The notes below the pieces were generated by a model that had not been told where the DNA came from, ran no database searches, and saw nothing but the letters and a program-made list of their open reading frames with translations. A stretch of DNA of 64,000 bases from Malacoraja senta (Eukaryota). This document shows positions 20,306 to 40,189 of the stretch, one piece after another. The stretch covers positions 682,001 to 746,000 of the forward strand of contig CM075994.1 of assembly GCA_038087875.1 (NCBI GenBank). Reading direction: 5' to 3'. The position numbers and the translations under genes are program-made. The stretch's first letter is position 1, and each line of letters starts with the position of its first letter.

Positions 20306-20312
20306 TATAAAA
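20306..20312 (+). promoter_or_regulatory. TATA box of the secreted-protein gene
   Basis: TATAAAA in unique sequence about 115 bp upstream of the ATG at 20422. Confidence 0.65.
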
Positions 20313-20421
20313 AGCCCCAGCCATAGTACGGAAACTGCAGAAGACTTGGCTACAAGAAGACGGTGGCTAAGCCCATAAGCACTGAAGAGACCTGAAATTG
20401 AACGATCGCATCTTTCTCATC

Positions 20422-20461
20422 ATGAGGGGAATATTTTTCATTGTCCTTCTGATCCCTCTTG
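20422..20461 (+). CDS. Secreted-protein gene, coding exon 1 (signal peptide [13 protein letters not shown])
   Basis: ATCATGA start, hydrophobic core, donor G|GTGAGT. Confidence 0.8.
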
Positions 20462-38400: not shown

Positions 38401-38718
38401 GGGGGGGGGGGTCGGCACTATTTGTGGCTGCATGATGCTGGGTCCACAATGTATCTAAAAAATGCATGGGAAAGAGTCACAACACGACACCCATCCCTTC
38501 TCTCCAGAGATGCTGCCTGTTCCGCTGAGTTAGTCCTGCTATTTGTGACCACCATTGAAAGATGGATGACGTTAACTGTGTTGGATGCACTTGGCTTCTG
38601 CAATGATGCTGTCTCTTATTTCACTTCCTCTGTAGATGAGCTCACGTGCGTCTTCGAAACCCTCACCTCCTCCTTGAAAAAATGTCGGGCCCATTCACGA
38701 CGATCACAAGAAGGATAA
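20422..38718 (+). CDS. Multi-exon gene for a predicted 157-aa secreted protein with four C-x11-C repeats (uncharacterised)
   Basis: join(20422-20461,20541-20591,24094-24153,28592-28669,29643-29675,30321-30410,36790-36828,38636-38718). All introns are GT-AG and phase 1, and the 474-nt frame is open: [157 protein letters not shown]. Confidence 0.8.
20541..20591 (+). CDS. Secreted-protein gene, exon 2 (51 nt)
   Basis: Acceptor TTCCTTCACTTTGCAG, donor AAG|GTAATT, phase 1-1. Encodes (V)[16 protein letters not shown]. Confidence 0.8.
23430..23985 (-). mobile_element. CR1-like LINE 3' fragment (intronic)
   Basis: ORF 23750-23980: [13 protein letters not shown]...LERVQRRFT. Confidence 0.85.
24094..24153 (+). 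CDS. Secreted-protein gene, exon 3 (60 nt, C-x11-C repeat 1)
   Basis: Acceptor TTTATATTCACAG, donor CGG|GTAAGT. Encodes (V)[19 protein letters not shown]. Confidence 0.8.
26300..28322 (-). mobile_element. CR1-like fragment split by an L2 insertion
   Basis: 26300-26931 and 28027-28322 join to match the CR1 at 31000-31915 (CCTCTTGTT|ATGAAGGCC). Confidence 0.85.
26932..28026 (+). mobile_element. L2 LINE, 5'-truncated, nested in CR1
   Basis: ORF 27002-27853 reads [10 protein letters not shown]...[15 protein letters not shown]...SRLDYCNSL...[10 protein letters not shown]...LHWLPV. Ends in a (GACTT)n tail. Confidence 0.9.
28592..28669 (+). CDS. Secreted-protein gene, exon 4 (78 nt, C-x11-C repeat 2)
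   Basis: Acceptor T10CTCCAG, donor TCG|GTAAGT. Encodes (D)[25 protein letters not shown]. Confidence 0.85.
29643..29675 (+). CDS. Secreted-protein gene, exon 5 (33 nt linker)
   Basis: Acceptor TTCTTTATCTCTTTTGCAG, donor GTG|GTGAGT. Encodes (D)[10 protein letters not shown]. Confidence 0.75.
30321..30410 (+). CDS. Secreted-protein gene, exon 6 (90 nt, C-x11-C repeat 3)
   Basis: Acceptor TTTCTCCTTTATATGTACAG, donor ATG|GTAAGA. Encodes (D)[29 protein letters not shown]. Confidence 0.8.
30985..34050 (-). mobile_element. CR1 LINE with near-complete but frameshifted ORF2 (APE endonuclease + RT), intronic
   Basis: Consecutive ORFs carry [53 protein letters not shown] and KFADDTKL. A premature TGA lies at 31710-31712, and a (TAGAAACA)n tail at 30985-31005. 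Confidence 0.95.
34525..35105 (+). mobile_element. CR1-like fragment
   Basis: Translates to [17 protein letters not shown]...EQRDLGV...[16 protein letters not shown]. Confidence 0.85.
35574..35704. repeat. (GATA)n microsatellite
   Basis: Visible directly. Confidence 0.98.
36400..36571 (+). mobile_element. Helitron-like 3' end
   Basis: Short hairpin GGAACCC-AAC-GGGTCCC (36544-36560), then 7 nt, then CTAG|T (36568-36572), preceded by GGAACGGGTTTCGTTG repeats. The 5' boundary is uncertain. Confidence 0.55.
36790..36828 (+). CDS. Secreted-protein gene, probable exon 7 (39 nt acidic linker)
   Basis: Uses the first AG after a pyrimidine tract (CACAAG, weak acceptor), donor TTG|GTAAGC, phase 1-1. 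Encodes (G)[12 protein letters not shown]. Confidence 0.6.
37326..37468. repeat. (TG)n microsatellite expanded inside a V-SINE
   Basis: The SINE body GGGTGCTGTCT...TTCTCCCTGTGAC is split by the TG array. Confidence 0.9.
38636..38718 (+). CDS. Secreted-protein gene, exon 8 (C-x11-C repeat 4 and stop)
   Basis: Acceptor TTTCACTTCCTCTGTAG. Encodes (D)[27 protein letters not shown] donor AAG|GTAACG follows at 38726. Confidence 0.8.
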
Positions 38719-40189
38719 TCTTTAAGGTAACGTATACCTGGTCCAGAATCATGTCATAACAAGCATTTTGTACTAAATTTACATTTTAGCTGGAAAAGGT
38801 TTACAGAGAAGATTTACGAGGATGCTGCCAAGACTCGACGGCCTAAGCTATAGGGGGAGGTTGGGCAGGCAAGGACTTTACTCCTTGGAACGCAGCAGGA
38901 TGAGGGATGATCTTATAGATGTGTACAAAATCATGAAAGCAATATATCTTGTAAACGCACAGTCTCCTGCCCAGAGTAGGGGAATCGAGAACCAGGGGAC
39001 ATAGGTTAAGATGAGGGGGGAAGGATTTAATATGAATCTGAAGGGTAATTTCTTCACGCAAAGGGTGGTGGGTGTGTGGAATGTGCTGCCAGAGGAGGTA
39101 TTAGAGTCAAGTACTATTGCAACGTTTAAGAAGCATTTAAGAAGCAGTTTCTTCCCAGCTGTTATCAGGCAACTGAACCATCCTACCACACCAGAGAGCA
39201 GTCCTGAACTACTATCTAACTCTCTGATGACCCTCAGACTATCCTTGATTGGACTTTGCTGGCTGTACCTTGCACAAAACTTTATTCCCTTATCATGTAT
39301 CTGTATACTGTAAATAGATCAATTGTAATATCTTTCTGCTGACTGGTTAGCACGCAACAAAGACTTTTCACTGTACCTCGGTACACGTGACAATAAACTA
39401 AACTAAAACTAAACTAAGCTAAACTAAACCAGACACGTACAAGGATAGGGCGTAGGTTTAAAGTGAGAGGGACTGTAAGCGATTTAAGGCAGCAACTCTA
39501 CCACTGCGCCACCGTGCCGTCCCAAGCACAACAGGTGTTGCATCTCCTGCGGTTGCAGGGGAAGGTACCTGGGGAGGAGGTGGTTTGGATGGGAAGGAAT
39601 GACTTAACCAGGGAGGTGCATATACATCAGGGTGTATCATGGTAATAATATATATTTTAATTATCTTTGAACAGGCTGCTTGCAGGTCCATTCTCAAAGC
39701 TGTAACTCCTTCCTCTTCAGCACGAGGCTGCTTTGTGATCATCCAATTCCCGCAGAAAACAACCTCTTGATAAAACAGCATCGCATCGTTCCACCTGCCT
39801 GAAATTCGCTTCTTTGCAAATCCATCTACGGCCCACAGAAATTCACTTGTTTCGAAATTAGTTCAGTTTAGTTAAGCGATACAGCTCGGAAACAGCCCTT
39901 CGGCCCATCGAGTCCACACCGACCAGCGATCTCCGCACATTAACACAATCCTACACACACTTGGGATAATTTATAATTTACAGAAGCAAATCAACCTACA
40001 AACCTGTACGTCTTTGGAGTGTGGGAAGAAACCGGAGCACTCGGACAAAACCCAAGCAGGTCACGGGGAGTACGGACAATCTCCGTACAGACAGCACCCG
40101 TAGTCGGGATCGAACTCGGGTCTCTGGCGCTGTGATGCAGCAACTCTACCGCTGTGCCACTGTGCCGCCCGTTAAATATGAGCAATGAA

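Follow-up and report, generated by a model that had tools for sequence, protein, structure and literature searches.

MANF, CDNF, MZB1 and Canopy are small proteins of the endoplasmic reticulum (ER) with variant KDEL tails and conditional secretion. Saposin-like proteins have a six-Cys pattern with C-x2-C, and class I/II four-helix cytokines form up-up-down-down bundles with long crossover loops and have mostly phase-0 introns. Secretoglobins are small secreted four-helix proteins with K-x-C motifs. They are about 100 amino acids (aa) long, carry terminal Cys, proximal and distal, that serve an antiparallel dimer, are encoded by three exons with introns of phases 1 and 0, and have been reported from amniotes alone (PMC11884772). 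NDUFA8, a twin-Cx9C (CHCH) protein with four Cx9C motifs, is reported to have the nested disulfides C36-C66, C46-C56, C78-C110 and C88-C100 (PMC12114033), so nested pairing of such helices exists. Here we analyzed 64,000 nucleotides of Malacoraja senta (GCA_038087875.1, contig CM075994.1, hereafter C18, positions 682001-746000; the window) and report a gene, copy A, from a previously undescribed family of secretory-pathway proteins that is lineage-restricted, evolves fast and carries four C-x11-C repeats. Coordinates without a contig name refer to the window.

Orthologue, gene structure and repeats

A profile built from the repeat exons retrieved one protein cluster among 397 candidates, LOC144602725 of Rhinoraja longicauda (E = 4.5e-10). 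It comprises three RefSeq isoforms (XP_078271987.1, XP_078271988.1 and XP_078271989.1), all named "uncharacterized." Isoform X1 aligns with the copy A protein over its whole length (89 of 148 aligned residues identical) with all 8 Cys in place, and the R. longicauda protein is identical to copies B and C, two paralogues described below, at 97 of 150 residues (overall identity, 60-65%). The two species share the leader, the Cys spacing and an acidic loop, whereas the R. longicauda protein ends in TDEL rather than a frameshifted tail, has a shorter exon-6 loop and carries N in place of K in repeat 1. Isoform X3 is missing precisely the 17 codons that form exon 2, and X2 has 4 fewer residues at the exon 6/7 junction; the RefSeq annotation therefore independently reproduces two predicted exon borders. 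Given how RefSeq models are usually made, we infer that the isoforms rest on RNA evidence. The preprint on the R. longicauda genome describes RNA taken from a single female, with the eye, liver, cerebellum and telencephalon as the sampled tissues (10.1101/2025.06.08.657570).

Searches of 5.8 billion proteins, together with HMMER over 1.84 billion representatives, returned the R. longicauda cluster alone, an absence that holds for these collections at that sensitivity and not for shark or other ray genomes. Pfam, PDB-sequence, Atlas and fold searches matched no family, the R. longicauda isoforms had no Pfam match, and the literature searched contained neither the locus identifier nor anything on the protein family. 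An earlier, sequence-only reading of the window (the preliminary description) had proposed an undescribed lineage-specific protein of no recognized family. The absence of family matches agrees with this and no function has been assigned; the proposal needs amending in that RefSeq already holds the R. longicauda orthologue as an uncharacterized locus and that the gene is one of a four-copy family with accelerated exons.

Copy A lies on the forward strand and has eight coding exons of 40, 51, 60, 78, 33, 90, 39 and 83 nt. All seven introns are GT-AG and phase 1, and the spliced frame of 474 nt encodes 157 aa plus the stop. A TATA box (20306..20313, beginning TATAAA at 20306) is kept in all four copies. 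Sixty nucleotides upstream of it lies a candidate cAMP response element (CRE)-like element, GACGTCA (20246..20252), which copies A, B and C share and the aligned upstream region of pseudogene D lacks. The coding part of exon 1 (20422..20461), with which the R. longicauda protein aligns, supplies the start codon and the greater part of the signal peptide (11-residue hydropathy, 3.4). Exon 2 (20541..20591), a cassette exon in R. longicauda, encodes the end of the leader and the predicted start of helix 1. Exon 3 (24094..24153) carries repeat 1 (24096-24134), identified by motif match, splicing and copy comparison, and exon 4 (28592..28669) carries repeat 2 (28594-28632) and a predicted helix extension ending in D-Y-L, with 64-76% identity to the R. 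longicauda segment.

Exon 5 (29643..29675) is a 33-nt linker identical in copies A, B and C. Repeat 3 (30332-30370) and the start of the acidic loop lie in exon 6 (30321..30410), which also holds the sole indel among the intact copies (3 nt, in frame). The acidic linker continues in exon 7 (36790..36828), whose weak acceptor (AAG; its pyrimidine tract is displaced) is kept in all four copies and fits the R. longicauda protein. Exon 8 (38636..38726, coding to 38718) carries repeat 4 (38647-38685) and the stop codon (38716-38718). A further donor at 38727, 8 nt beyond the stop, makes it likely that a ninth, non-coding exon follows. The candidate 3' untranslated exon (39675..39857) is a unique island with an acceptor, conserved in copies B and C and partly in D; it contains no canonical AATAAA.

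The encoded protein is about 16 kDa and acidic (isoelectric point [pI], about 4.4). Hydropathy reaches 2.9-3.4 over 11 residues at the N-terminus and at most 1.08 over 19 residues thereafter, and the scan found no transmembrane segment beyond the leader. All eight exons fall wholly within the 8,253 of 18,421 bases in the gene region that are unique within the window. Thus, the preliminary description was accurate as to the exons in unique islands of a repeat-filled region, the splice sites, phases and open frame, the TATA box, the hydrophobic leader and the four exon-encoded C-x11-C repeats that hold the only 8 Cys. Its further claim, of a real gene missed by open reading frame (ORF) calling, is borne out by the R. 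longicauda orthologue and the intact paralogues. The functional eight-exon gene family is almost certainly real.

The Cys residues of copy A, at 32/44, 52/64, 92/104 and 135/147, are separated by 11, 7, 11, 27, 11, 30 and 11 residues. In the six frames of the window, the consensus that had been proposed for the repeats matches exactly the four repeat exons (+ strand; starts at 24096, 28594, 30332 and 38647). As this consensus was derived from the same exons, we applied three independent tests. Four equally spaced consecutive pairs arise from 8 randomly placed Cys at a frequency of 3.3e-5, and the inter-Cys residues of the repeats are more alike than shuffles in all four proteins (P = 5e-5 to 7e-4). 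The loose pattern C-x9-K-x-C was not clearly enriched by itself (8 matches; shuffle mean, 3.3; maximum, 9), and the count of exon-like splice units (15 versus 11.5) was likewise unsupportive by itself. Since the repeats resemble one another beyond shuffles, the sequence comparison supports their origin by duplication of symmetric phase-1 exons, as had been suggested.

Divergence, predicted architecture and the C-terminal tail

DNA searches of the M. senta genome found the gene at four places. Copies B (C18:883192-863920, - strand) and C (C18:1009221-990090, - strand) have all exons, splice sites and Cys and an open frame. Copy D (C680:411200-388450, - strand) is a pseudogene: exons 2 and 3 are frameshifted, a stop replaces a Cys codon, one donor is GC, and the exon-5 acceptor has moved. 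The paralogous proteins are 78-92% identical. Because the introns differ by 2.2-6.6%, we take the copies to be real duplicates and not haplotypes.

Exons have diverged about twice as much as introns in four of five copy pairs, at non-CpG sites too: 6.9 versus 3.3% for A-B (P = 1.5e-4), 8.0 versus 3.3% for A-C (P = 1.4e-6), 13.0 versus 6.6% for A-D and 13.5 versus 6.3% for B-D. Intron columns in windows with >25% differences were removed before counting; exon flanks aligned without this filter agree (6.9 versus 1.9%, 7.9 versus 2.2% and 13 versus 6.8%). Nonsynonymous differences exceed the intron rate in three of three pairs (P = 0.007, 6e-5 and 0.023) and synonymous differences in none. The ratio of nonsynonymous to synonymous differences per site (pN/pS), with the tail left out, is 1.1 for A-B and 1.7 and 2.8 for the other pairs, based on only 1.5-5.5 synonymous differences. 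The exon excess is found on the A, C, BC and D branches. The three intact copies and the R. longicauda orthologue retain all 8 Cys; every one of these columns is invariant, as against 74 of the 140 others (P about 0.006). Secreted binders engaged in arms races show this combination of an unchanging Cys frame and accelerated exons, and we consider it likely that the family is under diversifying selection.

Two other readings bear on these data. Copy A might be an early pseudogene of a real family, its divergence reflecting relaxed constraint and intron homogenization, as its +1 frameshift and clustered substitutions in the tail, the death of copy D and the A-B pN/pS of 1.1 would allow. We regard this as the least probable account, because copy A retains its TATA box, its 14 splice sites, its 8 Cys and an intact frame as far as the end of repeat 4, because neutrality predicts equal rather than twofold exon divergence and because the excess is nonsynonymous. 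Lineage restriction, duplication and accelerated exons are also typical of reproductive and glandular secretion proteins, so the family could act in the clasper, alkaline or oviducal gland or skin mucus and diversify under sexual or ecological selection. This too seems improbable, as the RNA samples described in the preprint came from a female and cover neither gonads nor glands, yet the isoforms are annotated; the RefSeq evidence may differ.

We modeled the mature R. longicauda protein using AlphaFold. The single-sequence model (predicted local distance difference test [pLDDT], 71.8; predicted template modeling score [pTM], 0.59) has helices at 5-28, 35-61, 72-94 and 104-137, and the alignment-based full-length model has the same four helices (pLDDT 57). 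Each predicted helix contains one C-x11-C, consistent with the helical repeats proposed earlier, and the interhelix loops, of moderate confidence in the single-sequence model, are short, spanning 6, 10 and 9 residues. Pairing of C1-C4 with C2-C3 and of C5-C8 with C6-C7, as analogy and the models would suggest, has its centers at residues 33 and 103, which fall in or next to the predicted loops (29-34 and 95-103). The best fold matches are helical hairpins over model residues 1-68, with the first 60-68 residues superposing at a root-mean-square deviation of 2.4-3 Å in the best rows, and whole-length matches to bundles are poor (template modeling [TM] score, about 0.3). By these matches, two stapled hairpins fit the models better than a canonical four-helix bundle, and of the two arrangements that had been offered, the hairpins are the better supported. 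The twin-hairpin disulfide architecture is, on these models, somewhat favored. Of the amphipathic helices that had also been predicted, only that of repeat 4 has a significant hydrophobic moment (P 0.003-0.08; 0.06-0.81 for repeats 1-3).

The R. longicauda protein ends in TDEL, copies B and C end in MDEL, and the last exon of copy D encodes TDEL. Copy A ends in SQEG. Its C run at 38690-38692 is one base longer than in copies B, C and D, causing a +1 frameshift and a different ten-residue tail. Read in the ancestral frame, copy A ends in KDNL, with an E-to-N change at position -2; were the extra base a mistake of the assembly, the E would still be lost. D-E-L is fixed in R. longicauda and three of four copies while the preceding six residues vary. 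The protein also combines an N-terminal signal with the absence of a transmembrane segment (by hydropathy), as do KDEL-receptor ligands. According to Raykhel 2007 (PMC2140024), a study in which every XDEL variant was assayed, KDEL-like signals strongly favor E at -2 and favor L or F at -1, and -4 is broader than in PROSITE. The broad pattern given there, XX[DE][FLM], matches the tails of R. longicauda, copies B and C and the last exon of D, and does not match copy A in either frame. The xDEL tail is thus plausible as a retrieval signal but probably a weak one, and the chance that it affects localization is slightly below even. That the protein had been called simply "secreted" agrees with its leader and lack of transmembrane segments; the label is too simple, because the R. 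longicauda orthologue and copies B, C and D end in xDEL, and copy A alone has lost it.

The tail may have another origin. D-Y-L of exon 4 and D-E-L of exon 8 lie in the same register, 10-12 residues past the last Cys, although the similarity of the two tails reaches only P = 0.058. In all four copies a donor lies one base past the ancestral stop after exon 8. Exon 8 thus looks as if it had once been an internal phase-1 exon. An origin by exon duplication is compatible with a later function, since D-E-L has stayed fixed while the six preceding residues vary. If the tail were instead a non-functional leftover, the protein could be a liver-made plasma carrier of lipids or small ligands with apolipoprotein-like action. 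Its four long predicted helices and the shared D-x-L register of exons 4 and 8 would suit such a carrier, as would the tissues sampled for the preprint and the three isoforms, which would fit high expression in one tissue if RefSeq used those runs. We consider a carrier quite unlikely, as only repeat 4 is significantly amphipathic, the fold match to ApoE is not significant (E about 1; TM score about 0.3), and the accelerated exons and eight fixed Cys would go unexplained.

We tentatively favor a binder in defence or recognition that would undergo leaky ER retrieval in its ancestral form and free secretion as copy A, a combination we rate as somewhat short of an even chance; a defence or recognition role, taken by itself, is possible to a slightly lesser degree. 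A gene assembled by duplication of phase-1 exons would encode a signal peptide and an acidic all-helical domain, and the protein would enter the ER. Neighboring helix pairs would form antiparallel hairpins stapled by nested disulfides, like twin-Cx9C plus one half turn, and the two stapled hairpins would pack together. Such a frame could tolerate rapid, selection-driven surface change, as expected of an arms-race binder of foreign molecules. With the ancestral TDEL/MDEL tail, the KDEL receptor would retrieve the protein weakly and incompletely, leaving part of it held in the ER and part released, whereas copy A, lacking xDEL, would be freely secreted. More speculatively, and rather unlikely as a whole, the family could represent a new secretory-pathway fold of tandem twin-Cx11C hairpins, assembled from exons in cartilaginous fishes as a hypervariable binding scaffold. 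Its duplicates would be re-addressed between ER and secretion as they gain or lose a KDEL-like tail derived from a duplicated exon end, and copy A would exemplify neo-localization by a one-base insertion.

Several observations weigh against the favored reading. Typical antimicrobials are cationic, unlike this acidic protein. The modest pTM and the weaker alignment-based model limit the structural prediction. TDEL, MDEL and SQEG all fail the PROSITE pattern [KRHQSA]-[DENQ]-E-L (the first two at -4). Gerondopoulos et al. (PMC8248988) found that human cells secrete most of the ADEL and DDEL reporters, and so the -4 residue matters; TDEL and MDEL are named neither there nor in Raykhel 2007, in the text searched. 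The tail may also be a by-product of exon duplication. As to divergence, the B-C exon excess is not significant (3.4 versus 2.2%, P = 0.11), branch B alone shows none (P = 0.46), and the pseudogene D branch shows one. The intron filter may bias the intron rate low, the synonymous differences behind pN/pS are few, and gene conversion homogenizing introns could mimic exon acceleration.

The searches run here against families, structure sequences and folds gave this vertebrate protein family no match. Homology-based annotation misses such genes, and the protein collection has the family from one skate (R. longicauda) only. If the favored reading is true, the family would offer a new helical scaffold from nature, stapled by disulfides and variable at its surface, a candidate that skates and rays may use for lineage-specific defence or recognition, and, as its paralogues differ in their tails, a clean natural experiment on the birth and loss of a KDEL-like signal. 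For now, its general interest as an orphan is moderate.

Genomic neighborhood

Copies A, B and C sit in a segmental-duplication field with 17 close and two distant copies of a rhodopsin-family G-protein-coupled receptor (GPCR; 7tm_1) segment in 469 kb. Genes with SNTX, fn3 and GTPase domains lie about 38 kb upstream of copy C and 19 kb upstream of copy D. The neighborhood is a birth-and-death region, as judged from the 17 close 7tm_1 copies, the SNTX/fn3/GTPase-domain genes and an immunoglobulin (Ig) V-set-like ORF, and we count this in favor of a defence or recognition binder.

The same field bears on whether the protein is instead a resident of the ER lumen, a lineage-specific chaperone or escort resembling MZB1 or Canopy for a fast-evolving client (immunoglobulin-type proteins or the co-duplicated GPCRs), from which copy A escaped or is decaying. 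Its signal peptide, lack of a transmembrane segment, acidic pI and conserved D-E-L beside six varying residues are all compatible with residency, and copies B and C were duplicated along with a GPCR gene. Against this, position -4 is T or M rather than K, R or H, the fast exon change is unusual for ER housekeeping, and the saposin-type Cys pattern is not present. Moreover, 17 GPCR copies stand against three copies of the gene on C18, and no GPCR lies in the 74 kb around copy D. Residency in the ER is therefore unlikely.

The GPCR array spans C18:726-982 kb in both orientations, its 17 close copies being 87-96% identical to the window copy; the two distant copies are at C18:626-644 kb. Segments within the window lie at 44535-45287 (-) and 57270-58022 (-) and are putatively "GPR139-like." An open frame at 46807-47080 (-) reads as the GPCR N-terminal transmembrane helices TM1-TM2, about 1.5 kb from the TM3-TM7 segment, and the repeat DNA between them is either an intron or a disrupting insertion. 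Inside the array, C18:777786-803680 and 817098-842951 form a 26-kb inverted duplication with 98.6% identity that either arose very recently or reflects an error of assembly. Arrays of an 8-bp unit (TCAATGGT-like, up to 178 copies) at 43275-43750 and 55038-56486 adjoin duplicated GPCR units and may mark the boundaries of the duplication unit.

The domain scan of the neighborhood covered 20 of 68 long low-copy ORFs. The SNTX-type genes, at C18:1047032-1050427 (-) and C680:430492-432999 (+), have stonustoxin-helical, thioredoxin-like SNTX, fn3 and AIG1/septin-type GTPase domains, and the C18 gene is broken by an in-frame stop. The Ig V-set-like ORF (C18:602228-602767, +), about 100 kb upstream of copy A, has an E value of 1.8e-4, below the Pfam cut-off. 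A long open pol frame of a long terminal repeat (LTR) retrotransposon with reverse transcriptase, RNase H and integrase domains lies at C18:964936-968346 (-). Pieces of ORFs resembling the reverse transcriptase/endonuclease of long interspersed nuclear elements (LINEs), identified by eye, occur in the window at 26918-27853 (+), 49552-52281 (-) and 60696-63468 (-), two of them within duplicated units.

Comparison with known families

Like secretoglobin genes, copy A has a phase-1 first intron. Secretoglobin identity is rejected, given eight coding exons, all-phase-1 introns, 157 aa and 8 internal Cys. PF01099 (Uteroglobin) gave four weak matches in the genome and none at the copy loci, and, as to the Uteroglobin boomerang fold, the searches returned generic helical matches only, for a model with a pTM of 0.59. 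Membership of the saposin-like proteins is rejected on Cys spacings without C-x2-C and the lack of a Pfam match, and membership of the class I/II cytokines on the phase 1 of all seven introns.

With MANF, CDNF, MZB1 and Canopy, the family shares small size, acidity, helical content, abundant Cys, a signal peptide and a non-canonical xDEL-like tail; unlike them, it is lineage-restricted and fast-evolving. CHCH membership is also rejected, since all four pairs are Cx11C, not Cx9C or Cx3C, in every intact copy and in R. longicauda, and the searches run gave no sequence or fold match to CHCH proteins. The x11 spacing and a secretory leader set the copy A family apart from twin-Cx9C proteins, which use mitochondrial import, and because the leader is hydrophobic, the ER rather than MIA40-dependent mitochondrial import is indicated. 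NDUFA8 likewise has four two-Cys helices, and, by analogy only, the copy A family would share its nested two-hairpin architecture; the predicted helix limits and Cys positions fit a nested-disulfide hairpin of the CHCH type.

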